Part shown: piece after piece, positions 661 through 17,380 of the stretch
Position numbering within the stretch: the stretch's first letter is position 1
Layout: every line of letters begins with the position of its first letter
Virus record (IMG/VR): IMGVR_UViG_3300045988_157791
From: a virus
Taxonomy: Duplodnaviria; Heunggongvirae; Uroviricota; Caudoviricetes
Strand: one strand, 5' to 3'
Length of the DNA: 64,000 nucleotides
Notes under the pieces: model-generated
Seen by the model: only the letters and a program-made list of their open reading frames with translations
Told to the model about the DNA's origin: nothing
The model's database searches: none
Position numbers and translations under genes: made by a program

Positions 661-673
661 AGGAGTTTTAATC

Positions 674-904: not shown

Positions 905-909
905 AATCG

Positions 910-935
910 AGCGCCCACTATGGGCGCTTTTTTCG
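910..935 (+). terminator. rho-independent terminator (same stem as 638-660)
   Basis: Hairpin GCGCCCActaTGGGCGC plus T6. Confidence 0.7.
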
Positions 936-954
936 TTTCCAATACTTCCACAAT

Positions 955-980
955 AACGCGCCATTGATGGCGCGTTTTTT
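955..980 (+). terminator. rho-independent terminator
   Basis: Hairpin CGCGCCAttgaTGGCGCG plus T6. Confidence 0.65.
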
Positions 981-1399
981 ATTGTCTTTGACTCACTCCA
1001 ACAACATAAAAATAAGCGCCAAAATAACGCCATAAACGCGCTTTTATATCCTTGCCAGTACATACCCATTACTTAACACATTAACGCGCTTAAAATGCGT
1101 TATATTGCGCTATAACGTATGGCTAATCATTGGCTTTTAGTCTTGCTATGTGATCCGCGTTTATTTGTCGGCGCGGATCGGCATTTTGTGTTGTTTTGTA
1201 TCCGCTCGCATATGATTGCCACGTTGGGCAACGTGTACGCGCTTACAGTGATTTACCCACGGATTCACATAATCACATAGCGAAAGCTATCTGGATGGCC
1301 CAGGGGCTGAAACCCCCACCAGCGATACCCCAGCGCCGCTACGCAATTTCTGGCGCGATTCCGGGTTTCTCCCGCTCAGTTTTCTACATAAAGGCGAAT

Positions 1400-1480
1400 G
1401 CAGCCGTTTCCCGAAAAAATCCTGGCCGTTTCCCGTCGGCTCATGAATGCGTTCCTCGCCGTTTCTGAAAATTTCCCTGC
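1400..1480. repeat. iteron-like direct repeats (GCCGTTTCCCG-like, 3 copies)
   Basis: Copies at about 1403, 1425 and 1457; same unit as the 5000-5140 array. Confidence 0.5.
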
Positions 1481-1528
1481 GGCAGCTGGTGGCTATAGAG
1501 AAAGGGCCGTTTCTGGCCCTCTTCTCAG

Positions 1529-2011
1529 TTACACGCCATCAAGGATGTGGATGCGGTTGCTTGCGTATACATTCAGCATAAAGTTAGCGCAAAACAGTTT
1601 CCATGTGTCAACGCCAGCGGTATACGTAATGTTTTTGCATTTAATTGCATTGTTGGCGATCCGCATCCCCTGCGATACTGCTTCATCGTCGGAAAATTTG
1701 AACGACGATTGAGTTTTAATCCAGACAGAAATCTGCGTAGCGAACTCAATCAGCTTGGACTGGCAGAATCGCCCGGAGCGCACCGGAAAGACGAACGTTC
1801 CGAATCCAGAATTTACCACATATGCTTTCTCAAATACCCGCGAGTAACGACGATTGCCAATGATGTTGCGTACAATAATGCATTTTTCTTGTTCTGACAG
1901 TTCTACCGTCTCATTGTGACGCCAGGCACCAAGTACTCGTTTTTCAATGTCAGAGAACGTTACAGCGATATTGCCATGTGCGGGTGCGTTTACAGTAGCG
2001 ATAAAATTCAT
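1529..2011 (-). CDS. hypothetical protein (160 aa)
   Basis: ORF with AAGGAA SD; conserved promoter/leader motif immediately upstream. Confidence 0.55.
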   Translation of the reverse strand: MNFIATVNAPAHGNIAVTFSDIEKRVLGAWRHNETVELSEQEKCIIVRNIIGNRRYSRVFEKAYVVNSGFGTFVFPVRSGRFCQSKLIEFATQISVWIKTQSSFKFSDDEAVSQGMRIANNAIKCKNITYTAGVDTWKLFCANFMLNVYASNRIHILDGV

Positions 2012-2022
2012 GATTAATTCCT

Positions 2023-2076
2023 TATCGTAAATAACAAATTGTTTTCTTGTTGGCGTTAATTATCGTTGTACGAATA
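2023..2076 (-). promoter_or_regulatory. conserved early-type promoter/leader motif (copy a)
   Basis: Minus-strand reading TTGACG-N15/17-GATAAT followed by a near-palindromic AACAAnTTGTT core just 5' of the RBS. Confidence 0.55.
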
Positions 2077-2215
2077 AGGCGTCAAAGTGGAAAGTTGCGG
2101 TAGCCGGACGGGAACAGGTGGGTTTGTCGGTTGCCTGGAGGTAAGAGGTTGGTGTTTTTAGCCTGAGGGAAACAGGATGGTCATTTAAGGCCACCAGCAT
2201 TGGTGGCCTTAGTCT

Positions 2216-2497
2216 TTAGTGGAGCAGACCGATGTCGATGGTATCCCCTGAATCACCCACACGGATCATCAGCATGGCGAAGGCGTTTAGTGGATAACTG
2301 GCGTGCCATTCAGGGAAGCGGTCATCTCGCATGAAGTCGGCAATGTCGTAAACGCAGCCCTCAAAGTGGAAGAATCGCGTGCTTACCTGCTCGTCATATT
2401 CCACATGATCCATTTCTTGCTGTTCTGTTTCCGGCAAGTCCAGCCATGATTCAAGGAATACATTTTGTGCTTTAGGGGTAATGGTGAAATCAGTCAT
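2216..2497 (-). CDS. hypothetical protein (93 aa)
   Basis: Start re-placed to the ATG with GAGGA SD (MTDFTITPK...), because the motif at 2515-2572 lies inside the longer track ORF. Confidence 0.5.
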   Translation of the reverse strand: MTDFTITPKAQNVFLESWLDLPETEQQEMDHVEYDEQVSTRFFHFEGCVYDIADFMRDDRFPEWHASYPLNAFAMLMIRVGDSGDTIDIGLLH

Positions 2498-2514
2498 GAG
2501 CATATCCTCACTGC

Positions 2515-2572
2515 GTAAACATGTTGTTTTCTTGTTGGTGTAATTATCGCAGTGTAGATAAGGCATAAAAGA
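2515..2572 (-). promoter_or_regulatory. conserved promoter/leader motif (copy b)
   Basis: AAACATGTTGTTTTCTTGTTGGTGTAATTATCGC, same architecture as the other copies. Confidence 0.55.
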
Positions 2573-2832
2573 AGTTAATACAGGCTGAATACACAAGAAA
2601 GGTTCTGGAAGTTGATAACCAGGTTTCAAACTAACCTTCGGTTATTAAAAGTCATTTAAGGCCACCAATGCTGGTGGCCTTAATAATTATCGCCCGATTA
2701 CGCTAAGGATCTTTTCCTCAACTGATTTGTTGTTGCGACTAAACTGCCTTGCGTATCTGATGACAGAAGAGGCGTTTTGCTTTCTGACCATCTCGGCTCT
2801 TTCCTTCAGGCGTTTCTTGAAATCGCCCATAT

Positions 2833-3207
2833 TTACCACCAGGCACGGAACGTCAGTCTATTATTGTGAAAGTCGTGGTTCTTAATCAGATCTTCCACAA
2901 GCTCTTTCAACTCCCCCACATCATGCCAGTAACCTTCATCGTACTCCTGACTGCCGAAGAAAAAACCTTCCCGGGTAGGCAAGTACTCTTCGCAATTACT
3001 TTCGTTTATGTGCATCAAATGAGCCTTCAGAAAACAAATGTCATTCATCGTTAATTCTAAAAGCTCACAATTTTCGACTTCACCTACGTTGCGCTCCATC
3101 CACCCAACGAGCGCATTGAACTTACGGAAGTAAGCAACCTGCTTTCTGGATGCCTCGTTATTCAGATCGTTTTTAGGCTGCGTCTCGATATAGATATCAA
3201 GTCCCAT
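2833..3207 (-). CDS. hypothetical protein (124 aa)
   Basis: ATG with AAGGAAA SD (MGLDIYIE...). Confidence 0.5.
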   Translation of the reverse strand: MGLDIYIETQPKNDLNNEASRKQVAYFRKFNALVGWMERNVGEVENCELLELTMNDICFLKAHLMHINESNCEEYLPTREGFFFGSQEYDEGYWHDVGELKELVEDLIKNHDFHNNRLTFRAWW

Positions 3208-3324
3208 GATGGTTTCCTTATTAAGTTGCTTCAGTGAAATCATTTTCACAAATCAGATAAGGCAGAAAACAGATTGTTATCGGGCATAAGAAAATGGCGC
3301 GGTTTACGCGCCATTCAAAGAGGA

Positions 3325-3720
3325 TTAAGCGAATACGCTTTCAGGGATTAAGGTGTCAGCAGGAATGCCGGAGGTAATGCGCAGGCCGTACTGACCAATC
3401 CAGGTAGTGTTGGTATTCAGGCTGGAGGCGAATACGGTGTTAACCATATTCATCATGGTTTCAAACACCTCTTCATCAACCTGGCGGAAGTAGTTCTCGA
3501 TTTTCAGCAGCAGCGGGTCAGTTGCATCGAAAATAGACTGGTATTGAGTCGCGTACTCGCCGCCGGAGGCATCACCTTTACGCACGATCGTACTGGCCTG
3601 GACTTCGGCACCAGTTTCGGTGTTGTACGTAACAACGGTGATTTTTGCCACATTCTTACCTTCGGCGGTTTCAGAGGCATAGTAAACATCAACTGTCAGT
3701 TTTTCGCGTTTAACGGTCAT
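3325..3720 (-). CDS. hypothetical protein (131 aa)
   Basis: ATG with GGAGAG SD (MTVKREKL...). Confidence 0.5.
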   Translation of the reverse strand: MTVKREKLTVDVYYASETAEGKNVAKITVVTYNTETGAEVQASTIVRKGDASGGEYATQYQSIFDATDPLLLKIENYFRQVDEEVFETMMNMVNTVFASSLNTNTTWIGQYGLRITSGIPADTLIPESVFA

Positions 3721-3782
3721 TTCACTCTCCGTAGTGTATTGGTTATTTTTATATTCTATGATCGTAAGTATGTACTTACAAT

Positions 3783-3812
3783 ACAAAAAAGCCCCGTAAG
3801 GATGGCGGGGCT
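3783..3812 (-). terminator. rho-independent terminator
   Basis: Hairpin GCCCCGtaaggatggCGGGGC followed by a U-run on the minus strand. Confidence 0.6.
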
Positions 3813-3846
3813 GTCGTACGGTCGACTAATTACCACTTGCACATTA

Positions 3847-4158
3847 TCAGGCTATTGCCATCACTGATGCTCTCTGAATCTCTTGCTGGGCCACGCGGTT
3901 AACTTCCATCAAAGCCAGTTCGAGCTGATGTTCCGGCCACATTCTTTGAAATGCCACCCAGCCTTTTCCACGCTGGCGACGAACATTCATTACATAACGA
4001 GTAAAGGTGTTTTTATCGAAAGACACCGCTGTTTCACGGAATAGACGAATAGAGGTTCCATTGGCAACGATATCCAGCAAAGTTAATTGAGCAACCAGTG
4101 CAGGCTTCTCTTTTCTCTTCTGGTCTTTGTCCAGACCAAGAACCAATGATTTTTTCAT
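3847..4158 (-). CDS. hypothetical protein (103 aa)
   Basis: Track ORF begins at a TTG; ATG with GGAG SD chosen (MKKSLVLG...). Confidence 0.45.
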   Translation of the reverse strand: MKKSLVLGLDKDQKRKEKPALVAQLTLLDIVANGTSIRLFRETAVSFDKNTFTRYVMNVRRQRGKGWVAFQRMWPEHQLELALMEVNRVAQQEIQRASVMAIA

Positions 4159-4165
4159 CACAACT

Positions 4166-4215
4166 CCGTAAACAACTTGTTTTCTCAATGGCGTAAATAA
4201 TACCAGTAAGAAAAC
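4166..4215 (-). promoter_or_regulatory. conserved promoter/leader motif (copy c, variant)
   Basis: AAACAACTTGTTTTCTCAATGG. Confidence 0.45.
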
Positions 4216-4311
4216 GGCTACAAAGCATATTGATCAGGTGCATGAGCGATATGCAGGTTCTTCCCTGCGGCTATAGAGAAATTAAGCCAGCAAAGCTGGC
4301 TTTGGTTGGGG

Positions 4312-4641
4312 TTACTCGAATACTTCAAGAAACTCCTGAACGTCCCAATGCTGGACGAGGTGAAGATAGACCTTAGAAATCACGTCATTTTCGCTATCGC
4401 ATGTGAAGTAGTACTTCTGGCTGCGGTTGTATGTGTCCACACAAAATTCGCTCATATCCATAAAGTCAGCATCTTCACCCATGTCGCAAATCATCAAAGC
4501 AGGTGCGTCATCACGAGTCATCAGCTCAAGCACCCACCGCGAATTGATCAGAGTGGAAGACCAACCTTCTAACTCATAAAACTGATCAAACTCTTTTTGA
4601 GTTAATTTCTTGATTTGGTTGATGTCGATATTTGCAAACAT
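4312..4641 (-). CDS. hypothetical protein (109 aa)
   Basis: ATG start (MFANIDINQ...) directly downstream of motif copy d. Confidence 0.5.
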   Translation of the reverse strand: MFANIDINQIKKLTQKEFDQFYELEGWSSTLINSRWVLELMTRDDAPALMICDMGEDADFMDMSEFCVDTYNRSQKYYFTCDSENDVISKVYLHLVQHWDVQEFLEVFE

Positions 4642-4651
4642 AAAGCAACCC

Positions 4652-4708
4652 TTAAACAACATGTTTTCTTATTGGTGTTATTATCGCAATAACGCATAGG
4701 CGAAAAAG
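4652..4708 (-). promoter_or_regulatory. conserved promoter/leader motif (copy d)
   Basis: AAACAACATGTTTTCTTATTGGTGTTATTATCGC...GGCGAAAAAGG. Confidence 0.55.
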
Positions 4709-4999
4709 GATTTTATTCCGGTGAATGTGGTTTTGGCAGTGAGTTTTCAGGTTCAGTACCGAGTACACTTTTTACATTATTCTGATTTAGTAGCCGAAGG
4801 TGGCTGGTGGGCAGAATAATCATCTCCCCGAAAACCTACTGAAATCGATTGTGACCCGTTGGCTGTCTGGCACAATTACGCTGTAGCTGGGCATTCAGAG
4901 GGAATCCAGCGGTAAGTAAGTTCGCCTGCACGTGAGCGCCTCTCTTCTTCCCGCACATTACAGGTGGGTAGCCGCAACTCTCCCTCTCGCTATACCGGT

Positions 5000-5140
5000 A
5001 CGCCGCCGTTCCTGAACCGGCATCGAGCCTTTTCCCGAAATCCACACAGGCAACTCGACCGTTTCCCTGAAAACCTCCAGCCGTTCCCCGAAGGCAACCC
5101 AGCCGTTTCTGTAGCGGGATGCAGCCTTTTCCCTGTATGG
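5000..5140. repeat. iteron-like array, six GCCGTT(T)CCC-GAA units at about 22-bp spacing
   Basis: Units at about 5004, 5027, 5059, 5080, 5102 and 5124; no credible ORF. Confidence 0.55.
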
Positions 5141-5289
5141 ACCGAAGGCTGACCGTAGGGGTGTTACGGGGGATAAAATCAGGAGTTGAATAAATACGAA
5201 AAAGGAGGCGACACCCCTCCTTCCCTCCCAACTTATACATACCTGTCTTGTTCGCTATACATGTTGTGTTTTCTTCGTGTTTTATCTGT

Positions 5290-6110
5290 TTCAACCTCTC
5301 TATAGGCGTTAATGCTCACTCCTTCCAGAACGTTCTATACGGCGACTATTTCTGTTGGTGAATTGGGTGTGTTGTTTTCCCTGTCGGTGTATGTGGTTTC
5401 GTTCGTTTTGCGATGGTTCTTCTATGGGGTGTTCTCGTCGTTTTGGTGATTGTTCTTCTCCGTGTATGGAGTAATGGCAGGTGGGCGATTCCTTTCGTTA
5501 TTGTGTTTGAGTTGTTTGTCTGGAGTGCGTGAAGGGCTTTTGTAGTTATTCGTGTATTGGGTAATGGCGTTTCCCGTGATTGTTATGTTTCGTGTCTTTT
5601 GGGATTGAGAGAAACCTTGCGGTTACAGGCTTCGTTGGGGTTTCAGTGATTCTGATGTTTCTTCGCTGTTTGGGTAATGGCGTGTCGTGGGTATCGCGCG
5701 TATGAATGTTTTCGGATTGCCTGTGAAAGTTAGGTTGGTTGTCCGGTAGCCTGGGAAGAAGAGGTGGGTCTTTTCGGTAGCCTGCCATAAAGAGGTTGGT
5801 TGTTTTTGGTAATGGCATATGTGTTATTTAGTTGTTTTGTTATACCTGAAAATAAGTTGTTTATATGGTTATGTAACGCAACGGGAGCGATTTTGAGCGT
5901 GTGTTTTTGTTGGTAGTGTGTTGGGTCGTCTGTGGTGAAAATTGGACGCTGTGGCGCTGTCTGCTGCGTAGAGTTACGGGTATAAGAAGTGATGTGTGAA
6001 AACGTCAATTTTTTAGACCAAATCGGGTGAAAGCGTTGACGTTTCGTTGATCTGTTATTTAGTTGTTTTCTTATTTGTATAAACAACCATAACCTATTGA
6101 TATTTAATGA
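5290..6110. repeat. strongly GT-skewed non-coding region with degenerate ~100-bp repeats (GGGTAATGGCG cores)
   Basis: Top strand depleted in A and C; GGGTAATGGCG-like cores near 5476, 5562, 5668 and 5805; track ORFs here are low-complexity. Confidence 0.5.
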
Positions 6111-6205
6111 TGTGATTGCTGGTATGGGAGGGGAGTAGTGGCGATCAACGGATTCTTATAGAAAAGAATCAAATTGTGACCGCCATTATCAATGAGTTGC
6201 AACCG

Positions 6206-6775
6206 TTAGTTGTTCAGATAAACATTTGGAACACGGACGTAGAAGTTCCTGTCGCCGGTAAGTTCCAGAGTAATGTTAATGTCATTACCATTGTCTAGTG
6301 TAGCCGTTGCTCTATAGAACTTATCCGTCACCTTGTCCTCTATTGTCACCTTCATACATTTTGGTGCAGTCGAACCGTTATTCTCTTTCAGAATAGTTGT
6401 CACGAGAGGGCAGGCTGCTTCTTCAAGAGCAACCTCGTCCTTGTGTGGGATGCCGATGAAGATAACCCAAGCCAGCGACGCAACGATTATGATAAATGGC
6501 ACTCTGCTGCCTTTTGTAATAGTCGCGCGCTTCCAGAGATAGACAGGCAGGAGGAATACCCCCCATAGAATTGAAGGTGGTTCACAGCCAGACTCCGATA
6601 GAGCCATTCTGTCAGCTACTAACAAACCGATGGTAGTTACACCCCCAATTATAATAGCGTAATTGGTATACTCTTCCGGCGATACTCCAAAGAAGAAAGG
6701 CATGAACGCTAGAATCCACGCATAAATGTTATTCAGAGGTTTTGTTTGTTGGTTCTGGGTTTCCATCACATCCAT
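6206..6775 (-). CDS. membrane protein, about four predicted N-terminal TM helices (189 aa)
   Basis: Long hydrophobic N-terminal segments followed by a soluble C-terminal domain. Confidence 0.5.
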   Translation of the reverse strand: MDVMETQNQQTKPLNNIYAWILAFMPFFFGVSPEEYTNYAIIIGGVTTIGLLVADRMALSESGCEPPSILWGVFLLPVYLWKRATITKGSRVPFIIIVASLAWVIFIGIPHKDEVALEEAACPLVTTILKENNGSTAPKCMKVTIEDKVTDKFYRATATLDNGNDINITLELTGDRNFYVRVPNVYLNN

Positions 6776-6927
6776 TCCATCACATAAAAATCGCGTTTAT
6801 ATATTATCAATTTTCTCACTTGTATAACCTAAATACGCATCCGTTTATCAATCCACCTTCCACAAACATCAGCTTTAGCTATGAAAAATAACAATCTCAA
6901 AGTGAAAACCATTATCATAGGAAACGA

Positions 6928-7113
6928 TTAGATGAGATGGTCTAATTCATCATCTATCATTGCTTTAACACTTGAGTCATTAACCCCGTATTGATTTATG
7001 AACCGTTTCAGCTCCGGTGAAAACTGAAGGTAGATATCGTGAGCGTTTTTCACTGTAGGTTCAACGCCACGCATTTCAAGCGCCTTTAGTAGATATGAGT
7101 CTTCTTTAAGCAT
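6928..7113 (-). CDS. hypothetical protein (61 aa)
   Basis: ORF only. Confidence 0.3.
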   Translation of the reverse strand: MLKEDSYLLKALEMRGVEPTVKNAHDIYLQFSPELKRFINQYGVNDSSVKAMIDDELDHLI

Positions 7114-7149
7114 AAATTCTCCGTTGTCTAGTATGAAGCGATTGCCGGA

Positions 7150-7449
7150 TTACCATTGCCAGCACTCTAGCCCTTCAACGACCGGTGCACCACAATCAAA
7201 ATGTACAGAGTCAAAGCCTACATCAAGTACTTTCTGAATGTTCGCAATCGCGCCCTCGGATATACCATATCGACGCAACTCATCTTTCCAGTCATCGTCC
7301 TGTAACCCGGCGTGGACAATGCAACCGTACTCAATTTGTGAAACCCAATCCAGCTCATTGCTTGCGATCATGAATCGGCGAGCATCTTCCTCTGATGTAT
7401 GAGATGAGCTGATCAATGCCACCTGGTAGGCTTGGGTAATGTTCAACAT
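7150..7449 (-). CDS. hypothetical protein (99 aa)
   Basis: ATG with GGAG SD; motif copy e upstream. Confidence 0.45.
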   Translation of the reverse strand: MLNITQAYQVALISSSHTSEEDARRFMIASNELDWVSQIEYGCIVHAGLQDDDWKDELRRYGISEGAIANIQKVLDVGFDSVHFDCGAPVVEGLECWQW

Positions 7450-7460
7450 TTCAACCACTC

Positions 7461-7525
7461 CAAAACAAGTTGTTTTCTTATGTGGTTTATTATCTCCATC
7501 AACAAAAGGCAGAAAACAAATTGTT
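7461..7525 (-). promoter_or_regulatory. conserved promoter/leader motif (copy e, with a second partial core)
   Basis: AAACAAGTTGTTTTCTTATGTGG plus downstream AAAACAAATTGTTTT. Confidence 0.5.
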
Positions 7526-7565
7526 TTAGGTACTGTGTAAATCAGAAGGGATTGTGTCTATATGA

Positions 7566-7592
7566 AAATGCCCGGCGTGTTGCCGGGCATTG
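7566..7592 (-). terminator. metG rho-independent terminator
   Basis: Hairpin GCCCGGCgtgttGCCGGGC with a U-run on the minus strand, just 3' of the metG stop. Confidence 0.7.
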
Positions 7593-7610
7593 CGAAGAGA
7601 GGTTGTTTAA

Positions 7611-9644
7611 TTACTTAACCTGGTGGCCAGGTTTAGCACCAGCATCCGGGCTTAACAGGAAGATATCTTTCCCGCCGGGGCCAGCAGCCATCACCATGCC
7701 TTCAGAGATACCGAAGCGCATTTTACGTGGTGCCAGGTTAGCCACCATAATGGTGTGACGACCAATCAGTGCCTGCGGATCCGGGTAGGCAGAACGAATA
7801 CCGGAGAAGACATTGCGTTTTTCACCGCCGAGATCCAGTGTCAGGCGCAGCAGTTTGTCAGAACCTTCAACAAACTCTGCGTTTTCGATCAGCGCTACGC
7901 GCAGGTCAACTTTGGCGAAGTCGTCAAAGGTGATGGTTTCCTGAATCGGATCATCTGCCAGTGGGCCAGTAACTGGCGCGGCAGCTGCTTTCACTTCTTC
8001 TTTAGACGCTTCCACCAGTGCTTCAACCTGCTTCATATCGATGCGGTTATACAGTGCCTTGAACGGATTTACTTTATGGCCCAGCAGCGGTTGCTGGATA
8101 CCATCCCAGGTCAGTTCTGTATTCAGGAATGCTTCTGCACGTTCAGTCAGTTTCGGCAGTACCGGCTTCAGGTACGTCATCAGCACGCGGAACAGGTTAA
8201 TGCCCATAGAGCAAATCGCCTGCAGATCGGCATCGCGTCCTTCCTGCTTCGCCACCACCCACGGAGCCTGTTCATCGACATAGCGGTTAGCCAGGTCAGC
8301 CAGTGCCATGATTTCACGGATAGCTTTACCAAATTCGCGGCTTTCCCACGCTTCACCAATCACTTCAGCGGCATCAGTGAAGGTTTTGTACAACTGCGGG
8401 TCAGCCAGCTCGCTTGCCAGCACACCGTCAAAACGCTTATTGATAAAGCCAGCGTTACGGGACGCCAGGTTAACCACTTTGTTCACGATATCGGCATTCA
8501 CACGCTGAACGAAATCCTCCAGGTTGAGATCGATATCATCAATGCGCGAAGAGAGTTTCGCAGTGTAGTAGTAACGCAGGCTGTCAGCGTCAAAATGATT
8601 CAGCCAGGTGCTGGCTTTAATAAAGGTGCCGCGAGACTTGGACATCTTCGCGCCGTTCACCGTCACATAGCCATGAACAAACAGGTTGGTCGGCTTGCGG
8701 AAGTTGCTGCCTTCCAGCATGGCAGGCCAGAACAGGCTGTGGAAGTAAACGATATCTTTACCGATGAAGTGGTACAGCTCGGCGGTGGAGTCTTTCTTCC
8801 AGTATTCATCGAAGCTTACGCTGTCGCCGCGCTTGTCGCACAGATTCTTGAAAGAACCCATGTAGCCAATCGGTGCGTCCAGCCAGACGTAGAAATATTT
8901 GCCCGGCGCGTTCGGAATTTCAAAACCGAAGTAAGGGGCGTCGCGGGAGATATCCCACTGTTGCAGGCCAGATTCAAACCACTCCTGCATTTTATTTGCC
9001 ACCTGCTCCTGCAACGCACCGCTGCGGGTCCATGCCTGCAACATTTCGCTGAAAGAGGGCAGATCAAAGAAGAAGTGTTCAGAATCACGCATTACCGGCG
9101 TAGCACCAGAAACCACCGATTTCGGTTCAATCAGTTCAGTCGGGCTGTAGGTCGCGCCGCAGACTTCACAGTTATCGCCGTATTGATCTGGCGCTTTACA
9201 TTTCGGGCAGGTGCCTTTCACAAAACGGTCCGGCAGGAACATGCCTTTTTCCGGATCGTACAGCTGAGAGATGGTGCGGTTTTTAATAAAACCGTTTTCT
9301 TTCAGGCGAGAGTAGATAAGTTCTGACAACTGGCGGTTCTCTTCGCTGTGCGTCGAGTGATAGTTGTCATAGCTGATGTTAAAGCCTGCGAAATCAGTCT
9401 GATGTTCCTGACTCATTTCGCCAATCATCTGCTCCGGTGTGATACCAAGCTGCTGAGCTTTAAGCATGATCGGCGTGCCGTGGGCATCGTCGGCGCAGAT
9501 GAAGTTGACCTCGTGGCCGCGCATTCGCTGGTAACGGACCCAGACATCAGCCTGGATGTGCTCCAGCATATGGCCGAGGTGGATTGAGCCGTTAGCGTAC
9601 GGCAGCGCGCACGTCACCAGAATTTTCTTCGCGACTTGGGTCAT
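7611..9644 (-). CDS. metG: methionine--tRNA ligase (677 aa)
   Basis: Start at [26 protein letters not shown] (HIGH-type motif), KMSKS present, zinc knuckles CPKC/CEVC, C-terminal tRNA-binding domain; I recognise it as enterobacterial MetG. Confidence 0.95.
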
Positions 9645-9801
9645 AGTAGGCATTACTTCTTTGTAGTGAAAAGGGGCTTGATAGTAACAAAATGGCCTTA
9701 TGTCTGCCATGTGATAACAGCATTTCTCATAAATGATTAAATGTCGTAGCTGGAGTACACTACAAGGCGACAATTGCGCAAATTAAAATAAAGGAGACGG
9801 G
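9645..9801. promoter_or_regulatory. divergent metG / apbC promoter region
   Basis: 157-bp AT-rich interval between divergent starts. Confidence 0.5.
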
Positions 9802-10902
9802 ATGAGCGAGTCCAAATCGCCGGATGCCCTGAGAGCAATGGTAGCCGGTACGCTGGCTAATTTTCAGCACCCAACCCTGAAACACAACCTGACTACGCTT
9901 AAAGCGTTACACCATGTTGCGTTGATGGATGACACACTGCATGTCGAACTAATCATGCCTTTCGTGTGGAATAAGCCTTTTGAAGACCTGAAAGAGCAAT
10001 GTAGTGGTGATCTGCTCCGTATCACTGGCGCAAAGGCTATTGACTGGAAGCTGTCGTACAACATTGCCACGCTTAAGCGCGTCAAAAACCAACCAGGCAT
10101 TAATGGCGTTAAGAACATTATCGCCGTCAGCTCAGGCAAGGGCGGCGTAGGTAAATCCTCCACGGCGGTAAATCTGGCACTGGCGTTGGCTGCTGAAGGT
10201 GCGAAAGTTGGTATTTTGGATGCCGATATCTATGGTCCATCAATTCCAACCATGCTGGGCGCGGAAAACCAACGTCCAACCTCACCGGACGGTACTCACA
10301 TGGCACCTATCATGTCTCATGGCCTGGCAACCAACTCTATTGGTTATCTGGTCACCGACGACAATGCAATGGTGTGGCGTGGACCGATGGCCAGCAAGGC
10401 GCTGATGCAGATGTTGCAGGAAACTCTATGGCCTGATCTGGACTATCTCGTTCTCGATATGCCGCCGGGCACTGGTGATATTCAGTTGACGCTGGCGCAG
10501 AACATTCCTGTAACTGGTGCGGTTGTGGTAACTACGCCGCAAGACATCGCGCTGATCGATGCGAAGAAAGGCATTGTGATGTTCGAAAAAGTCGAAGTGC
10601 CGGTACTGGGTATCGTCGAAAACATGAGTGTGCATATTTGCAGTAACTGCGGTCATCACGAGCCAATTTTTGGCACCGGTGGCGCACAGAAACTGGCCGA
10701 GAAATACAACACGCAGTTGTTAGGCCAAATGCCACTTCATATCTCTCTTCGTGAAGATCTGGATAACGGAACACCAACCGTTATTAGTCGTCCAGATAGC
10801 GAATTTACGGCTATTTATCGTGACCTCGCAGATCGCGTTGCTGCCCAAATGTATTGGCAAGGTGAAGTAATACCTGGCGAAATCGCATTCCGCGCAGTGT
10901 GA
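9802..10902 (+). CDS. apbC: Fe-S cluster carrier ATPase Mrp/ApbC (366 aa)
   Basis: P-loop SSGKGGVGKSS and CSNCGHH motif; Mrp/NBP35 family; divergent from metG as I recall for enterobacterial chromosomes. Confidence 0.9.
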   Translation: MSESKSPDALRAMVAGTLANFQHPTLKHNLTTLKALHHVALMDDTLHVELIMPFVWNKPFEDLKEQCSGDLLRITGAKAIDWKLSYNIATLKRVKNQPGINGVKNIIAVSSGKGGVGKSSTAVNLALALAAEGAKVGILDADIYGPSIPTMLGAENQRPTSPDGTHMAPIMSHGLATNSIGYLVTDDNAMVWRGPMASKALMQMLQETLWPDLDYLVLDMPPGTGDIQLTLAQNIPVTGAVVVTTPQDIALIDAKKGIVMFEKVEVPVLGIVENMSVHICSNCGHHEPIFGTGGAQKLAEKYNTQLLGQMPLHISLREDLDNGTPTVISRPDSEFTAIYRDLADRVAAQMYWQGEVIPGEIAFRAV

Positions 10903-10905
10903 TAA

Positions 10906-10930
10906 AAAGGCGGTGCAATGCACCGCCTAA
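10906..10930. terminator. hairpin terminator after apbC
   Basis: AAAAAGGCGGTGCAatgCACCGCCtaatc. Confidence 0.6.
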
Positions 10931-10939
10931 TCAGTTCTC

Positions 10940-11329
10940 CTACATCACGGGACAATCATCAAACTCGCCACTTCTTGCGTCGTTGATAATGTGAGTGATC
11001 ACACCAAACACGGCATTGCTGCCCGTGCATCCATCGTCATCCTTTGGCAATGCTTCCTTCTTACCGGTTCTTAAATCCTCCAGATGCTGACGTGGGTACT
11101 TCCGGTATCTTTTTACGCGATATTCCCCATCCAGAGCGCATACAAGCAGAGAACCATCAACTGGGGTAAGTGAGGAATCAACCACCAGCAATGCACCCTG
11201 TAATATTCCCTCACGATGATGACTATCAGCTGCCCGCATGAAGTAGGTCGCTGAAGGATGTCTGATTAGTTGCTGATCAAGAGAAATACGGCTCTCTGCA
11301 TAATCCGCCGCAGGAGAAGGGAAGCCCAT
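10940..11329 (-). CDS. UmuD-prime-like S24 peptidase-domain protein, natively truncated (129 aa)
   Basis: Begins M-GFPSPAADY, the residues just after the UmuD Cys24-Gly25 self-cleavage site; Ser (ADSH) and Lys (RVKR) dyad positions retained; stop upstream in frame; no umuC nearby. Confidence 0.75.
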   Translation of the reverse strand: MGFPSPAADYAESRISLDQQLIRHPSATYFMRAADSHHREGILQGALLVVDSSLTPVDGSLLVCALDGEYRVKRYRKYPRQHLEDLRTGKKEALPKDDDGCTGSNAVFGVITHIINDARSGEFDDCPVM

Positions 11330-11428
11330 AGCGTTTTACCTCAATGATACTGTTTATTCATACAGTATACATTGAAAAGGCATAGTTTGTGAAAGCGGGG
11401 TTTGCAGGCGCGCCACGCTGGGGGCTAA

Positions 11429-11821
11429 TCACATTGGTGGCGTGAACTTGCCATTCATATATTGCAAAATGCTTGACTCAATTTTTTCATTAAAATCAGA
11501 ATGATGCTCCTCAAGGACAAAGCGCGCCTTATTGTTGCGCACAATAACCTCCGCCAACGGACTAACCAGAGATGTGGAGTTAGAGATTTTCTCGGCGCGC
11601 TCTACATCGCTTTTAAACGTTACGATGAAGTGCTGGTGGCCTGGTGACCGGCGACACAACATGCGTCGCACTTCCACGGTATCTTCACGGCCTTGAGTAT
11701 GTACAGGAAAGCTATCGACCACCGCTGTATTGGTGCGGATTGTCTGCATAGAACGCGTGTTGTCGTGATAGTTAAGCATGTTTAATGTCTTCCCCATCTT
11801 GCCGTTATTTTCTTGGTGCAT
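11429..11821 (-). CDS. hypothetical protein (start ambiguous)
   Basis: ORF; three candidate ATGs, the third has the best SD. Confidence 0.4.
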
Positions 11822-12056
11822 CCTCGTTCTGATACACCGGATGGCTTCCTTTTGGCAACTGGAGGCTTAACTGCCGGTAGTGCCGTAACCGTTCCATGAA
11901 ATAGGTGCGCAGGTTCTCTGGTTGCTCGCGGGCTACCTGTTCAGCTATGACAGGTATGTTCAATCGCTCTTTGTACGCCACACCGCTGGCAGCCAGATCA
12001 ACGTTAACCTTATCCCGTTCTTCCTGACTTTTAGCTGCAATATTCCAGTCGCTCAT
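11805..12056 (-). CDS. hypothetical protein (83 aa)
   Basis: ORF overlapping the downstream gene by 17 nt (possible translational coupling). Confidence 0.4.
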
Positions 12057-12058
12057 AT

Positions 12059-12331
12059 TTAAGGCTCACATTTCCAGATGGTATTCTGAACACCCGAACC
12101 GGGCGCAAGATTAGGGTTAGCGTTCGCGCTATGCTGATATACTGCTTTAGACTTCCCATATTGCTGACAGGCTTTATCTGCGGTTTTTTGCAGGCTATCC
12201 AGGCCATACCAACCATCTGACTGTATGCTTACCTTTTCACCGTCGTTGTATTGCACCATTGCACACCCAGATATAGCCAGTATCGCGCCGACAATAACGC
12301 TTTTCCATAAAACTCTATGCAACATATACAA
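12059..12331 (-). CDS. putative lipoprotein (90 aa)
   Basis: Signal peptide with lipobox LAISGC. Confidence 0.45.
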
Positions 12332-12370
12332 AAATCCCCTCTGTGAATTGAGGGGATTTTAGCATGGTGA

Positions 12371-13129
12371 TCAGATATCGGCCTTATTCGGAATTTTATC
12401 AGCCACCAGCGGCAATAAAGCCTTCGCCATTTCATGAACCAACATGGCATCAATGACGCCTAGCGTATGGACCGGCTTAATCTTTAATGCGGCCTCAAGA
12501 TAGCCTCTTTCCAGAGTGGTTTTTACGCTTTTCTTGGGCGATTGTTGGGAACTATCCGGAAAATCCGGATGGTTGCCAGCCAGTCTACGCAAAACGGCCT
12601 TAACAGCCTCAATACGGTCATCATCAACTTTTTCTACAATATTGGAATTTAAATACTTCGAAGCCTTGCTATGCCAATCGCTGGTTTTAGGGTCTTGTCC
12701 ATCCATCAAACGCCAAGCTTCAGCGATTAACTCATAGCCAGTAACAGTGGCTTCCTGCGCATCACCAATCAGTTGTGTGATCTCTCTTTCAAGCATGCTT
12801 AGAGCGTTAGGCATTGGTTTTTCTTCCGGTACTACTGGCACTGGAGGGGCGGCGTATACTTCAATTGTCCCATTATCAATAGGCCATTCTCCATCCTTGA
12901 GGTAGTCACTTGTGCCGTCAACTTGCTGTTCTGCAATGTGGAATGCACCTATTGGTTTTGCCTCAAGCGAGGCCAGTGCAATTCGTGCCAGTTTTAGATC
13001 TCGTGCAACCATCTCAATAACAACTTTGCAGTCCGCACCTTCTTTACTAACACGTCCTTTCAAGTCTTCCAGATAACTAACGCTTTCGCGTGCATGGGAG
13101 ATTAACTGTTCTTTGGTTAAGGTGGTCAT
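12371..13129 (-). CDS. hypothetical protein (252 aa)
   Basis: ORF with coding-like composition. Confidence 0.5.
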   Translation of the reverse strand: MTTLTKEQLISHARESVSYLEDLKGRVSKEGADCKVVIEMVARDLKLARIALASLEAKPIGAFHIAEQQVDGTSDYLKDGEWPIDNGTIEVYAAPPVPVVPEEKPMPNALSMLEREITQLIGDAQEATVTGYELIAEAWRLMDGQDPKTSDWHSKASKYLNSNIVEKVDDDRIEAVKAVLRRLAGNHPDFPDSSQQSPKKSVKTTLERGYLEAALKIKPVHTLGVIDAMLVHEMAKALLPLVADKIPNKADI

Positions 13130-13314
13130 TAGGCAGCTCTCTCAACAACAAGCAATTCGTCGTAGTCATAATCCGTTTCGGAACCATCCGTACCGAACAG
13201 AGTCACTTTGTCACCTTCCATCCAGAAAGATTTAACCGCACATCGTTTGCCTTTAGATGTTATGACCACATCACCTTGGGTTACATCTTCAGCGCGAACT
13301 TCTACTGTTCTCAT
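13129..13314 (-). CDS. hypothetical protein (61 aa)
   Basis: ATG with AAGAGGG SD. Confidence 0.35.
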   Translation of the reverse strand: MRTVEVRAEDVTQGDVVITSKGKRCAVKSFWMEGDKVTLFGTDGSETDYDYDELLVVERAA

Positions 13315-13855
13315 AATGCTGACCCTCTTTGGTGAAAACGCCTGATGCAATACTGTTTATGATGCTGTCAGTACAGGGAGTAGAAAGCTGGGCATCTCCA
13401 GCTATTTTCATGACTTCGACATTCGCATATCGAATACCGAGGTGTATCAGACCTGCTATACCTGACTTAAGTCGAACATTTTCCATAAACAGATCCTTTT
13501 CCCGCTGTTTAACGGTCTCCAGCTCAACACGCAGTTTCTCAAGCGTTAGGGCCATCTCTACGTTCTCCTGCTCAAGACGTCGGATGTGTTGCTGTCTTTT
13601 ATCCAGTTCGTCCAGCAGTGCAATCACATCGGGATCACTATCATCAACTACTGTTACGCGTGATTTTTCATAATGTTCATCTGCAAAAGTACGCCCTATC
13701 TTAAAATATCCGTCATCACTCTCACCGGAACAGGCATAAACAACATGTGCTCCAGATATGCGCTGTATTGACATTTCCTCGCCACAAACAGAGCATTTAG
13801 GCGCTGGTTTTGGTGAATAACGTTCACGTAACGTCAGGTAGTAAATCTCATTCAC
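13289..13855 (-). CDS. hypothetical coiled-coil protein with N-terminal CxxC (188 aa)
   Basis: Heptad-rich central region (LLDELDKRQQHIRRLEQENVEMALTLEKL). Confidence 0.45.
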   Translation of the reverse strand: MNEIYYLTLRERYSPKPAPKCSVCGEEMSIQRISGAHVVYACSGESDDGYFKIGRTFADEHYEKSRVTVVDDSDPDVIALLDELDKRQQHIRRLEQENVEMALTLEKLRVELETVKQREKDLFMENVRLKSGIAGLIHLGIRYANVEVMKIAGDAQLSTPCTDSIINSIASGVFTKEGQHYENSRSSR

Positions 13856-14307
13856 TGTTTATTTCCTGTACGAAGCTCAGCGGCAAAAGCTACTGCGTGA
13901 TCATGATGTTCAAGTGTGTATGCGCACTCAGCAAACATCTCCACGCCCTGCGCACGTACTTCAGCCAGAAAAGCATCGGTGGCTGGAGTCTCCGTTAATT
14001 CGCTAACCCAATTATCTCCGTGTTCCTCGGCACACATCGCATCGAATGCTCGCTCAGATTCTTTCAGGGCTGCATTCTCCGCCGCTAATGCGTCTCTCTG
14101 CGCCCGCAACTTCTCAATTTCAGCAGCCATGTAGTAACCAACCATAGCGAAGACGGCAAAAGAGTTGTCTGCCTCATCAGGCGACACTGAGGCCATTAGC
14201 AGGCCATCGTAAAAATCGTGACTCCCATTGGTGATCGCCACCGCATAGGAGTCGTGGTTCTCGCGCTTGTGAATGAGAACTACGGGATTTTCGATTTTGT
14301 TACTCAT
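13852..14307 (-). CDS. possible Ead/Ea22-like lambdoid early protein (151 aa)
   Basis: Coiled-coil plus C-terminal FLAEVRAQGVEMFAECAY-type segment, recalled from Ead/Ea22-like proteins; conserved GGAAAAACAC-ATG initiation context. Confidence 0.4.
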   Translation of the reverse strand: MSNKIENPVVLIHKRENHDSYAVAITNGSHDFYDGLLMASVSPDEADNSFAVFAMVGYYMAAEIEKLRAQRDALAAENAALKESERAFDAMCAEEHGDNWVSELTETPATDAFLAEVRAQGVEMFAECAYTLEHHDHAVAFAAELRTGNKQ

Positions 14308-14445
14308 GTGTTTTTCTCTTCTTTGCTGTTACATAAGCACTACCAAGTGCTGGTTTATTTTCACAAATAAGAAAATGTAGAAAACAATTTATTTAAGGCC
14401 ATAAGTCATGGCCTTTATTTATTCATGCAGAAGGATTTGTAGCGC

Positions 14446-14826
14446 CTAATTGCCGTATAAAATGGGTTGAGGCGCTTGCCAGTAAGCTCCACCGTCCCAT
14501 GTGAACCCCATGCGAATAAGAGTGTTTATTGCGGCTTTGGTAGACTCTGATTCGACGCTGACTTTTCGAAACTCTTGAACCTCTTTCGCCAACTTGTATG
14601 TAATTGTGCAGGGGACGATTGCAGCCCAGCCTTTCTCATGACTGTTAATGACCATCTGGATGTGACCATCCAGAATAGGTTGATCAGGCATGTTATTGAA
14701 AACGTCTGCCTGTTTTTGAATGTGAAGAAAAAGCCTTGCCAGCTCCATTTGCTCACTACGAGACAAGGGATTATCAAGAGGGCTTTTTGCAAAAGCGGCT
14801 ATACGCTGTGCGTCAATGCCAAACAT
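14446..14826 (-). CDS. hypothetical protein (126 aa)
   Basis: ORF. Confidence 0.45.
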   Translation of the reverse strand: MFGIDAQRIAAFAKSPLDNPLSRSEQMELARLFLHIQKQADVFNNMPDQPILDGHIQMVINSHEKGWAAIVPCTITYKLAKEVQEFRKVSVESESTKAAINTLIRMGFTWDGGAYWQAPQPILYGN

Positions 14827-15530
14827 CAGCGCACCTCACCATCTTTATGGCTGGAGTTAACTTCCGTCATTAAATGTCTGACGTAATCGACAAGAGAGCC
14901 GCCTGGTGGAATCTGGCATTCCTCAACTAACTGGAAGTAGATATCCGCTGCATTACGTGTATTGCTACCCGCGCATATTCTTTCTTCCCGAAGTGCATGA
15001 AGCTCGTTGATCAAACGGTCACACTCTCCGTTACGCTGATCCACAACAGCCTCAAGTTCTGCGACGCGTTCACCTGGCGTCTTACCTTCTTTGCGTTGGA
15101 TGGTAACGACGAAATCGCCAATTGCAGGGACGTTGTAATCCAGCTCAAGGTAGTTTTTGGCACCGCTGCGGACGAACTCACCCGCGAACATGGTGGCGAA
15201 CATCGCAGAGGCCACTTCGCCGTTGAAAAGTGACTCCAGATCTAACGGAGTCCCGGCATCAAGAGCCTCTTTTGCTGTATCCATTGCATCCATGAACCGA
15301 TCAAACTCATTGGCGCGCTTTTCCAAGTTTTTCCATTGCTCGCTCCAACGTTTGGCAACGAAGTCTATGAATGTTTTCGCGGATTCATCAAAATCCCCCT
15401 CAAACTTAACGATGCCTTTATCAATAATGATCTGGCCTACCGCATCCTCTGCATAACCTTTCAATGTAAACTTGAAAGGAAAATCAGAATGGCCTGTGAC
15501 GTTAAAATGCTCTAACTGGAGGTTGTTCAT
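14826..15530 (-). CDS. hypothetical protein (234 aa)
   Basis: ORF with conserved initiation context CATGTGTTTTTCTC. Confidence 0.5.
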   Translation of the reverse strand: MNNLQLEHFNVTGHSDFPFKFTLKGYAEDAVGQIIIDKGIVKFEGDFDESAKTFIDFVAKRWSEQWKNLEKRANEFDRFMDAMDTAKEALDAGTPLDLESLFNGEVASAMFATMFAGEFVRSGAKNYLELDYNVPAIGDFVVTIQRKEGKTPGERVAELEAVVDQRNGECDRLINELHALREERICAGSNTRNAADIYFQLVEECQIPPGGSLVDYVRHLMTEVNSSHKDGEVR

Positions 15531-15591
15531 GTGTTTTTCTCTTATCGTTTAGTAACTACATTCTTACACAAATTAGGTAAGTATTTACCTA

Positions 15592-17277
15592 TCATTTAAC
15601 GCGTTTGAAAACGTATACGCTGACTGTGATCCCTGTGTCTTCAAACTCGTTGGTAAACGACTTCCCTCTGGCATAAACGTAATTATCCATCGTCATCCAG
15701 TCCAGTATTGGCGCAGTGCCCGGCAATACTGCTACAAGACGCCCGCCGACTTTCAGATGCCCCAGCGCAGCCAGCGTGTGCTCTCTATGACGACCAAGCG
15801 AGTACGGCGGGTTCATAACGATTTTGTCGAACTGATAACCTACGTTGTCCTCAGACCACTTTATGAAGTCGCAGCAAATCGTGTTCGTATACCCTTTTCC
15901 GCGCAGGATATCAGCGAAGAGAGGTGCGATTTCTATGCAGGTAACATCTTCCAGATCGGCGTTGATATAGGCCAGAAGATCCCCACGTCCGGCTTGAGGC
16001 TCCAGCAGCTTCTCACCAGACTTCAATTCAGTGGCTCTGGCAACGTACTCAGCAATCAAGCGTGGGGTAGGGTAGAACTGGTGTGATTTTGTATCCGGTA
16101 TTAATCCGGTAGCCACAATCGTATTTAGCGTATGGCCGATCTCATACGGGAACTGCCAGTGCTTTTTCTCCTGCACGCCGCCAATGAAGCTCAGTGTGCG
16201 CTCAAGCTCTTCCACCTGCGACTTCTGGAGAGCTGAATCAGAGAAGTACCATACGCCTTTGTCTTTGCTTAATCGCCCGTCACGAAGCGCAGTGCGAACC
16301 GGCACGGAGATCGTCTTCTGGATTAACCCGAACTGCTTTGGTGCCCGTGTTTTTGGCGCGGTGCGACATGGCGCGGGGATTGCAGCAGGCATACTGTAAG
16401 CCAGCACCTCATTCAACTTCCAGGCCACGTCAGGATGTATTTCAAAGTGAACGTTGCCGTTCTTGAACATCTTCACGCGCATTAGATTTCCATCGACGTT
16501 CATCCAGTCACCGGTCTGGCAGTCGTTTGCCCGATACGCAGCTGATAGCACCTCAGCAGTGCGGTTGATGGTAATAAATTCTTTGTGCGCGAAGAAATGA
16601 AGCAAGACACGCAGATCGTCGATATAGTCCTCTTTGCGATAGTTCACACTAACGCTGTCCCGCCAGAAATCAGAAATGCAGTCAGCGATTATCAGACGTT
16701 CGCTGAAACCGTTTGTCTTATTTGTCTTGTGCGCAGGACTCAGCGCCTTAAACAAGCCATACACGCGCTCAGAGAGATATTTGTGCCTGTCATTCAGCAA
16801 ATTAAGCATCGTGGGTATGACCGTTTCTGCTTTGAACTCCGGTACACCAACGAACTCTTTAACCTTCATCTGGTAGCCGGTTCTGTCAGTTTTGATGACT
16901 TCCTGTTTGCCCTCTATAAACTGCTCGCGCCACTCATCTCGACGGGAAGCTGGCATGATCAGCAAAACGTTAGTCATGTCCGTGACCTTCCTCCAGTACT
17001 CGGCCCAAATATTCTGTTTCACCCATTCCAGATCGACTTTATCCAACCAACCTCGATTTAAACGCGAGCGATCTTCATCTGGTCGATGGTTTAGTCTCAG
17101 CAGGCGATTAATCATGTTGTGGCGTTCGTCGCCATAAACGAAGTCGTGTACCTGATACATGAAGGCGATCTCTTTCTCGCACTCGGCCACAATTTCGTGG
17201 ATGACGTTCATTTCCTGCCGATAGTCGATAGCAGTGTTTGAGTTGGCATCGTCGATGATGGAAAGGGCTGTATTCAT
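15592..17277 (-). CDS. fusion protein: uncharacterised N-terminal domain plus C-terminal N6-adenine DNA methyltransferase (561 aa)
   Basis: C-terminal FYPTP...EPQAGRGDLL (SAM-binding-like) and NPPY catalytic motif; roughly 380-aa N-terminal region without recognisable motifs. Confidence 0.7.
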   Translation of the reverse strand: MNTALSIIDDANSNTAIDYRQEMNVIHEIVAECEKEIAFMYQVHDFVYGDERHNMINRLLRLNHRPDEDRSRLNRGWLDKVDLEWVKQNIWAEYWRKVTDMTNVLLIMPASRRDEWREQFIEGKQEVIKTDRTGYQMKVKEFVGVPEFKAETVIPTMLNLLNDRHKYLSERVYGLFKALSPAHKTNKTNGFSERLIIADCISDFWRDSVSVNYRKEDYIDDLRVLLHFFAHKEFITINRTAEVLSAAYRANDCQTGDWMNVDGNLMRVKMFKNGNVHFEIHPDVAWKLNEVLAYSMPAAIPAPCRTAPKTRAPKQFGLIQKTISVPVRTALRDGRLSKDKGVWYFSDSALQKSQVEELERTLSFIGGVQEKKHWQFPYEIGHTLNTIVATGLIPDTKSHQFYPTPRLIAEYVARATELKSGEKLLEPQAGRGDLLAYINADLEDVTCIEIAPLFADILRGKGYTNTICCDFIKWSEDNVGYQFDKIVMNPPYSLGRHREHTLAALGHLKVGGRLVAVLPGTAPILDWMTMDNYVYARGKSFTNEFEDTGITVSVYVFKRVK

Positions 17278-17380
17278 AATTGCACCATTAAGAAGTGATT
17301 TGTTTAATGGTGCAATTATTTCAAAAATGAAAAGGTACTAAATAGAAATAAACAGGCAATCCTTCAAATAAAGGCATTGG

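Follow-up and report, generated by a model that had tools for sequence, protein, structure and literature searches.

A metG-apbC gene pair probably captured long ago by an SSU5-like phage-plasmid of Escherichia and Shigella

Introduction

How does a temperate phage come to carry what looks like its host's own methionine--tRNA ligase? The question is raised by IMG/VR record IMGVR_UViG_3300045988_157791, a 64,000-nucleotide (nt) stretch of Caudoviricetes DNA that we refer to as the window. In it metG, the gene for methionine--tRNA ligase (MetRS), lies next to a divergent apbC (mrp) gene amid mobile-element sequence. Large lytic phages and giant viruses carry aminoacyl-tRNA synthetase (aaRS) genes, usually from highly diverged viral lineages. 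The metG of the window is virus-borne like these, but unlike them it is a near-host allele on a temperate phage-plasmid, it has kept its chromosomal neighbour and promoter, and it appears to exchange sequence with the host gene.

The original prediction, drawn from the sequence alone, proposed either that the element had captured an aaRS locus or that the contig was chimeric. The explanation that we favour, and that we hold as a whole to be very probable, is an old capture of both genes into an accessory slot of the element, followed by conversion of metG, with the pair now serving as autonomously expressed cargo. The plasmid family concerned (pLF82, pECOH89, Cyrano, pWPMR2) and the theme of phage-plasmid-borne metG are already known. 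We add the exact boundaries of the cassette, its accessory-slot context, the apparent old capture outside crown Escherichia, and the patchwise homogenisation of metG but not of apbC, which may or may not already be described in Tam et al. 2024. Relative to the original prediction, what is new is the assignment of the element to the SSU5-like phage-plasmids, the likely age of the capture, and the fact that phage-plasmid metG has already been studied functionally.

Results

Gene identity and the element

The metG gene occupies positions 7611-9644 on the minus strand and is complete. Its ATG start gives 677 amino acids (aa), the 720-aa open reading frame (ORF) with a TTG start being an overextension. 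The predicted MetRS is identical to K-12 MetRS at 673 of 677 residues. It scores 1019 bits against the NF001100 equivalog (cut-off 587, residues 4-677) and 696.9 bits against TIGR00398, and its residues 543-677 match TIGR00399 (metG_C_term, 162.9 bits, cut-off 116.65), the C-terminal EMAPII-like tRNA-binding/dimerisation domain. The K-12 alignment also locates the class I motifs HLGH (residues 22-25) and KMSKS (333-337) and the CXXC...CXXC zinc knuckle (C146, C149, C159 and C162). The same protein is a common chromosomal E. coli protein from the yeh-mrp-metG context, where the DNA is 95.5-96.9% identical. Being identical to the product of a common chromosomal, hence functional, allele, it would aminoacylate tRNA-Met and tRNA-fMet.

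The apbC gene (9802-10902, plus strand), assigned on the same two kinds of evidence, encodes a 366-aa Fe-S cluster carrier P-loop NTPase that has 95% protein identity to K-12 Mrp and scores 759.3 bits against the NF008669 equivalog (cut-off 348, residues 2-366). The deviant Walker A motif GKGGVGKS (residues 112-119) and the cluster-ligating CXXC motif, C280-S-N-C283, are present by alignment with K-12. The gene is three codons shorter than that of K-12, with 82% DNA identity. The complete MetRS gene and divergent Mrp/ApbC gene of the original prediction are thus borne out as full-length ORFs, both above equivalog cut-offs. Its description of the pair as host-type does not hold for apbC at the DNA level, where identity to Escherichia chromosomes is only 81-84%.

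The first 20,000 nt of the window are 85% covered by Escherichia phage Cyrano (pLF82) at 96.6% nucleotide identity, and over 1-22 kb identity to the Cyrano backbone is 95-97% for most of the length. Positions 1-20000 have further matches in Escherichia phages CMS-2020a and PhiR41_1, and more distant ones in Salmonella phage SSU5 (24% covered, 81.5% identity, in collinear blocks). These matches place the window among the SSU5-like phage-plasmids of the Escherichia/Shigella clade (types pLF82/Cyrano, pECOH89 and pWPMR2); it spans only ~60% of such an element, and its part from 22 to 64 kb was surveyed as a list of ORFs. Cyrano is a ~108-kb episome at ~5.5 copies per chromosome; its virion production has been measured, and it is induced by ciprofloxacin (PMC9928086). 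The pWPMR2-like elements form a conserved clade within the SSU5 supergroup, common in S. sonnei and also found in E. coli CC131, CC23 and CC73 (bioRxiv 10.1101/2025.09.12.675607).

Boundaries and distribution of the cassette

Homology to the K-12 chromosome is confined to positions 7610-10898, from stop codon to stop codon, at 89.9% over 3.3 kb. The K-12 mrp(apbC)-metG locus (b2113-b2114) has the same gene pair in the same divergent arrangement, but its flanking genes yehE and yehF are missing from the cassette, which also shows no relation to it downstream of the genes or in most of the intergenic region. The 80 nt between the operator motif of the backbone and the metG stop (7531-7610, minus strand) and the 37 nt between apbC and humD are plasmid-specific. 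Both are identical in Cyrano, and neither has a counterpart in the 80 species loci compared or in the K-12 chromosome. No direct or inverted repeats, insertion sequence (IS) remnants or ends, or att-like sites flank the cassette beyond short matches at chance level.

An assembly chimera, in which a chromosomal metG-apbC segment had been mis-joined to or collapsed into a plasmid or phage contig, would agree with the 96.6-97.0% identity of metG to E. coli chromosomal metG and with the G+C content of the segment (0.50-0.52), which lies above that of the flanks. It is refuted in practice by the recurrence of the junctions. The 4.5-kb region 7000-11500, which includes both of them, occurs in 209 of 5,426 complete E. 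coli genomes at 96.7-98% identity, in all cases on plasmids of ~100-126 kb annotated with metG, apbC and HumD/S24 peptidase. In the same genomes metG alone is found at 220 plasmid and 5,424 chromosomal places, and apbC likewise at 220 plasmid places. PLSDB contains the cassette on 208 plasmids, 191 from Escherichia (mostly E. coli, some E. albertii) and 6 from Shigella; 203 of the 208 are non-mobilizable. These sequences come from many laboratories and platforms and are joined by isolated phages, Cyrano and PhiR41_1 both containing the cassette with a gene annotated as MetRS. S. sonnei plasmid p38 (NZ_CP099775.1) carries it at 97.1% identity. Furthermore, apbC is only ~82% identical to any E. 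coli chromosome and therefore does not derive from the host chromosome, and chromosomal homology gives way at the stop codons to the two plasmid-specific spacers. Thus, of the two origins first proposed, capture of the aaRS locus by the element is the one that the data bear out.

The pWPMR2, pLF82 (Cyrano) and pECOH89-type elements share the backbone of the window, its metG-apbC-humD arrangement and its junctions. The left backbone flank was found on 186 PLSDB plasmids, against 208 for the cassette, so the cassette is essentially fixed within this phage-plasmid clade. Backbone homology to SSU5 ends at 7530 and restarts at 14355, and in the equivalent place SSU5 has five unrelated genes (SSU5_099-103) and lacks metG-apbC. 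The region 7531-14354 is therefore, as far as these comparisons go, a variable accessory slot between two SSU5-conserved blocks; in the window this region is occupied by metG, apbC and humD, by a Hot-like homologue of the theta subunit and by Ead/Ea22-type genes. Like SSU5 itself, the SSU5-like phage-plasmids of Klebsiella and Salmonella conserve the blocks that border the slot on either side, operator motif included, and are without metG-apbC. With SSU5-conserved backbone and element motifs on both sides, the locus is, as had been argued, not a simple chromosome/prophage junction.

Divergence of apbC and age of the capture

We compared eleven phage-plasmid copies of the pair with eight Escherichia chromosomes. 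Seen from metG, a recent pick-up from a present E. coli host would seem natural, and the pair would then be a young, possibly transient passenger: the MetRS protein is a common chromosomal E. coli allele, and tracts of metG are 100% identical to K-12. The divergence of apbC makes this very improbable. The plasmid apbC copies are 93-100% identical to one another but 81-84% identical to any Escherichia chromosome. Chromosomal apbC genes of different Escherichia species are 89-93% identical (98.8% for E. coli/Shigella flexneri, 95.6% for E. whittamii/E1V33). The synonymous divergence (dS) of plasmid apbC is ~1.5 to all Escherichia, and in a neighbour-joining tree the plasmid clade forms a long branch outside crown Escherichia. 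In the metG tree, on the other hand, plasmid copies nest within Escherichia, that of the window with K-12 and S. flexneri and that of plasmid F404 with E. ruysiae, and their identity to Escherichia chromosomes (92.5-96.6%) lies inside the within-genus range. Both trees are ungapped, and the positions of S. enterica, Kosakonia and Kluyvera in the metG tree, which are misplaced owing to indels, are to be ignored.

The discordance between the two neighbours can be expressed as the ratio dS(apbC)/dS(metG), which is 1.7-2.4 for chromosomal orthologue pairs, 4.4-10.3 for plasmid against Escherichia, and 0.56-1.14 between plasmid lineages. Base composition tells a similar story. G+C at third codon positions (GC3), a comparison also proposed at the outset, is 0.52 in plasmid apbC against 0.61-0.65 in chromosomal apbC, a shift toward the plasmid's own value; plasmid metG has kept the chromosomal level (0.61-0.63). 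The same junctions are also shared by plasmids of E. coli, S. sonnei and E. albertii, between whose lineages apbC and metG have a dS of 0.14-0.26 of their own. Finally, most of the intergenic region is not Escherichia-like. Of the 157 nt that separate the divergent genes in the alignment (9645-9801), about 47-55 nt beside metG are conserved with E. coli; they include the core metG promoter segment of the K-12 locus with an extended -10 (TGTTACTAT). The remainder aligns with the Citrobacter freundii complex (135-137 nt, ~77%) and not with Escherichia. The region would serve as promoter for the pair. Together, these comparisons indicate that the capture is old and that its source was a lineage outside crown Escherichia.

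A search of one genome each of 185,579 species for the donor gave no ApbC relative above 95% protein or ~84% DNA identity; 484 relatives were compared at species level, none above 95% protein identity. No chromosomally integrated plasmid-type apbC was seen, the identity bands leaving room for a handful at most. Two records in the comparison deserve comment. The one labelled Enterobacter hormaechei B56 (CP170191.1) has metG and apbC identities to the window that are exactly those of K-12, which suggests that its species record is mislabelled or contaminated. The other, under the name Salmonella enterica subsp. diarizonae CCUG 30040T, has a score that is unusually high for this genus.

Mosaic structure of metG

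In sliding windows, patches of metG are 99-100% identical to K-12 where they differ by 4-10% from Cyrano, and vice versa. With E03 (the common plasmid allele) and K-12 as parents, 116 informative sites fall into 25 runs (runs test, permutation p<5e-5). There are 22 consecutive K-12-type sites over coding sequence (CDS) positions 492-828, a chromosome-type tract at window positions 8817-9153 (minus strand, like all metG tracts), and over the 353 nt of CDS 541-893 (window 8752-9104) identity to K-12 is 100%. Two more tracts of chromosome type occupy 9219-9402 and 7776-7869. Conversely, 16 consecutive plasmid-type sites cover CDS 1350-1613, within a plasmid-type tract delimited by informative sites at CDS 1308-1613 (window 8032-8337), and the 295 nt of CDS 1343-1637 are identical to E03. 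Plasmid-type sequence recurs at the 3' end of the gene (7614-7683), which borders the non-homologous flank and in all eleven phage-plasmid copies is the stretch least like Escherichia, as would be expected if a conversion tract must have homology to either side of it.

The window copy is closer to chromosomal alleles (97.0%) than to any plasmid allele in the E. coli collection. It has at most 97% identity to any plasmid allele of the collection and its own set of chromosome-type tracts; its apbC CDS is 100% identical to those of plasmids SCU-306 and E03. Other plasmids carry different metG mosaics, for instance F404 relative to E. ruysiae. The simplest reading of these sequences is one old capture of the whole pair followed by recurrent conversion of metG, presumably RecA-dependent, by resident chromosomal alleles.

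Selection on the cassette

The ratio of nonsynonymous to synonymous divergence (dN/dS, omega) is 0.005-0.027 for both genes, also between phage-plasmid lineages, and both ORFs are intact in 11 of the 12 sampled copies. Both genes are thus under strong purifying selection. Could the pair nevertheless be a neutral hitch-hiker that persists through a successful plasmid lineage, with metG conserved merely through re-copying from the chromosome? Conversion from a constrained chromosomal gene would alone keep the dN/dS of metG low. Moreover, metG is annotated as frameshifted, in two pieces, in plasmid pAMPD01 (NZ_CP058309.1), and a transposase is inserted between metG and apbC in plasmid NZ_CP075739.1. 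However, apbC shows little sign of conversion, yet its omega between plasmid lineages is 0.009-0.015; the gene has persisted over a dS of ~1.5, and an identical ApbC protein (WP_000004356.1) is encoded by plasmids of S. sonnei, E. coli and E. albertii. The ORFs adjacent to the pAMPD01 metG are fragmented as well, so that its frameshift is probably a sequencing error. We therefore consider a neutral passenger quite unlikely. For ApbC, the purifying selection (omega 0.009-0.027) also speaks for retention of Fe-S binding and transfer.

Expression and possible function

PMC12452169, citing Tam et al. 2024 (doi 10.1101/2024.10.27.24316207), states that phage-plasmid metG (pWPMR2) promotes antimicrobial survival in Shigella sonnei and that its expression produces a subpopulation predisposed to acquire third-generation cephalosporin resistance. 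Both mutation of chromosomal metG and a lowered level of its transcription are established ways in which persistence arises (PMC11004401). In the common plasmid allele of MetRS, no plasmid-specific change was found that mimics a known tolerance allele. Every substitution in this allele also occurs in chromosomal Escherichia alleles, as do all four in the window copy. A few substitutions without chromosomal counterpart in our sample are private to single copies, for example N245D in Cyrano, and E116K, T361A and A668V in RHBSTW905. Since the window MetRS is a common chromosomal protein and plasmid-specific substitutions are lacking, dosage or expression would be a likelier basis for any effect of its metG than a change in the enzyme. 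A transposon-mutagenesis paper lists metG as core essential and contains no report of a plasmid copy making it non-essential.

Published transcript levels for strain LF82 in stationary LB are ~148 for humD, ~92 for apbC and ~16 for metG, with a prophage background of ~10 (PMC9928086). In the lysogen apbC is thus clearly expressed and metG weakly so under this condition, but the metG figure may be distorted by multi-mapping to the 94%-identical chromosomal copy.

The low plasmid metG transcript in the uninduced lysogen could also be read in favour of a role in the lytic cycle, in which the cassette would boost charging of initiator and elongator Met-tRNA and Fe-S supply for virion production, a role that has been proposed for the aaRS genes of large phages, and would not be lysogenic-conversion cargo. 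That the element is an inducible phage (PMC9928086) with tRNA genes and further host homologues connected with translation and replication points the same way. On the other side, the cassette retains its own chromosomal-type promoter region, and apbC is oriented opposite to the early genes around it, with transcription in the lysogen ~9-fold above background. SSU5 and its Klebsiella and Salmonella relatives lack the cassette, which therefore is not needed for the lytic cycle. The phenotype reported in PMC12452169 is, furthermore, that of a lysogen. We regard a lytic role as unlikely, and prefer to see the cassette as cargo expressed in the lysogen.

Backbone motifs and neighbouring genes

To the left of the cassette, two palindromes of the sequence AAAACAANTTGTTTT (7462-7476 and 7513-7527) lie upstream of the DUF5983 gene (7150-7449, minus strand). 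They form an inverted repeat that brackets a promoter-like spacer, and the conserved backbone of SSU5 type has its left end here; the segment 7463-7530 aligns with SSU5 at 82%. The 15-nt palindrome occurs seven times in the window with at most one mismatch (0.08 expected), at 2031, 4169, 7462, 7513, 18922, 19651 and 41613. The repeated backbone promoter motif that had been noted at 7461-7525 and on both sides of the cassette is therefore real, and it resembles an operator for a regulator that the element itself would encode. The recurrent initiation context noted at 14307, 15530 and 18904 likewise recurs far beyond chance, as GGAAAAACACATG (eight sites with at most one mismatch, 0.17 expected, including 14305, 15528 and 18902).

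The terminators ascribed to the cassette stand only in part. In the spacer 3' of metG, a terminator-like hairpin (GCCCGGC-AACAC-GCCGGGC, 7570-7588) is followed by ATTTT on the minus strand; with only 4 T it falls below the threshold of the terminator scan. A G+C-rich hairpin (10908-10928) lies where apbC and humD converge. Because its T-run is on the minus strand, it is primarily the humD terminator, although it may act bidirectionally.

The UmuD-prime-like gene noted at 10940 is humD (10940-11329, minus strand), whose product, a translesion polymerase subunit of UmuD' type as in P1/D6, matches the NF051876 equivalog at 219.7 bits (cut-off 120). A LexA box, TACTGTTTATTCATACAGTA, precedes it at 11348-11367; it matches the consensus and overlaps a promoter-like site (11393-11364, minus strand), so that humD would be under SOS control. 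Beyond it lies a further host-like gene of the slot (11805-12056, minus strand), whose product resembles P1 Hot and is homologous to the theta subunit of DNA polymerase III (PF06440, 116.5 bits). HumD and the theta homologue belong to the same families as in P1 and D6, and window 10950-13992 is 91.7% identical to phage D6 (~92% for the humD-hot genes). This P1/D6-like SOS and replication module is a separate part of the same slot, outside the chromosomal capture.

Other plasmids show further variation in the slot. In a divergent sub-lineage of these phage-plasmids, comprising pZ1323HEC0016-2 (NZ_CP148383.1, L094:8124-9596) and two E. marmotae plasmids, der follows directly after apbC and humD is replaced. 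The der of pZ1323HEC0016-2, which encodes the essential ribosome-biogenesis GTPase EngA, is ~91% identical to chromosomal E. coli der; after metG, it is another essential gene related to translation that was captured into this slot. In S. sonnei p38, ISEcp1-blaCTX-M-15 shares this accessory region with apbC, ~3 kb away from it (L084:10114-11410), so that the tolerance-associated metG and an ESBL (extended-spectrum beta-lactamase) gene are physically linked on one infectious element. The window, in contrast, has no adjoining resistance gene.

No tRNA-Met gene or known RNA element was found near the cassette. The only tRNA genes of the window are tRNA-Ser(TGA) at 63613-63699 and tRNA-Thr(TGT) at 63924-63999, both on the minus strand. 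Its only Rfam cis-regulatory match is a cspA thermoregulator at 47995-48413 (plus strand; 185.7 bits, gathering score 78), the 5' untranslated region of an ORF (48173-48388) for a CspA-like cold-shock protein, another host-type gene in the phage-plasmid. A local composition anomaly was observed at 5001-6000 (GC skew +0.22, AT skew -0.33).

Discussion

We propose that a 3.3-kb piece of an enterobacterial chromosome, comprising metG, apbC and their shared promoter region and cut nearly at both stop codons, was captured in a single old event from a donor outside crown Escherichia. As no flanking repeats or IS remnants are seen, illegitimate recombination is the probable mechanism. The cassette would then have become fixed in the phage-plasmid clade, with both genes kept functional by purifying selection. 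Plasmid metG would be close enough in sequence to the host gene to recombine with it homologously and would therefore have been repeatedly overwritten in patches by resident alleles, leaving it mosaic and unusually variable. At ~82% identity, apbC may be too diverged for efficient homologous recombination; it would have escaped conversion, drifted toward the lower G+C of the plasmid, and so recorded the original depth of the capture. Today the cassette would act as autonomously expressed cargo and supply the lysogen, at plasmid copy number, with a second wild-type-like MetRS and with ApbC. In Shigella sonnei the literature attributes to the expression of phage-plasmid metG a subpopulation that is antimicrobial-tolerant or persistent.

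Several points weigh against this account. No donor emerged among the species searched. A single replacement of metG by an Escherichia allele is not fully separable from many small conversions; repeated events are nevertheless favoured because the mosaics differ between plasmids. The conversion tracts of the window would come from metG alleles of its hosts, an attribution that is indirect. The tolerance phenotype comes through two citing papers and concerns S. sonnei, not this element. In LF82 the plasmid metG transcript is ~1.6x the prophage background, which does not support strong constitutive over-expression.

A tentative but plausible extension is that metG acts as an infectious recombination partner. 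It would be overwritten patch by patch with the chromosomal alleles that it meets, the E. ruysiae-like allele on the E. coli plasmid F404 being an example, and would possibly donate tracts back, thereby shuttling alleles of an essential gene between Escherichia lineages and species, while apbC keeps the signature of a single ancient capture. If true, this would give a mechanistic reason why plasmid metG copies are 'highly variable', and a general model for captured core genes on mobile elements.

The locus also provides a worked example of how true capture of a core gene can be told from a chimera, by the recurrence of junctions, the divergence of the neighbouring gene and the shift of GC3 to that of the plasmid. 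With a homogenised metG and an isolated apbC on one 3.3-kb fragment, it amounts to a natural experiment in which sequence identity gates recombination between a mobile element and the chromosome. Among complete E. coli genomes the element has a frequency of ~4% (220 plasmid places, 5,426 genomes). That an infectious, plasmid-like phage brings along an essential aaRS gene in second copy is clinically relevant, and the literature ties this cassette to antimicrobial survival in epidemic Shigella sonnei.

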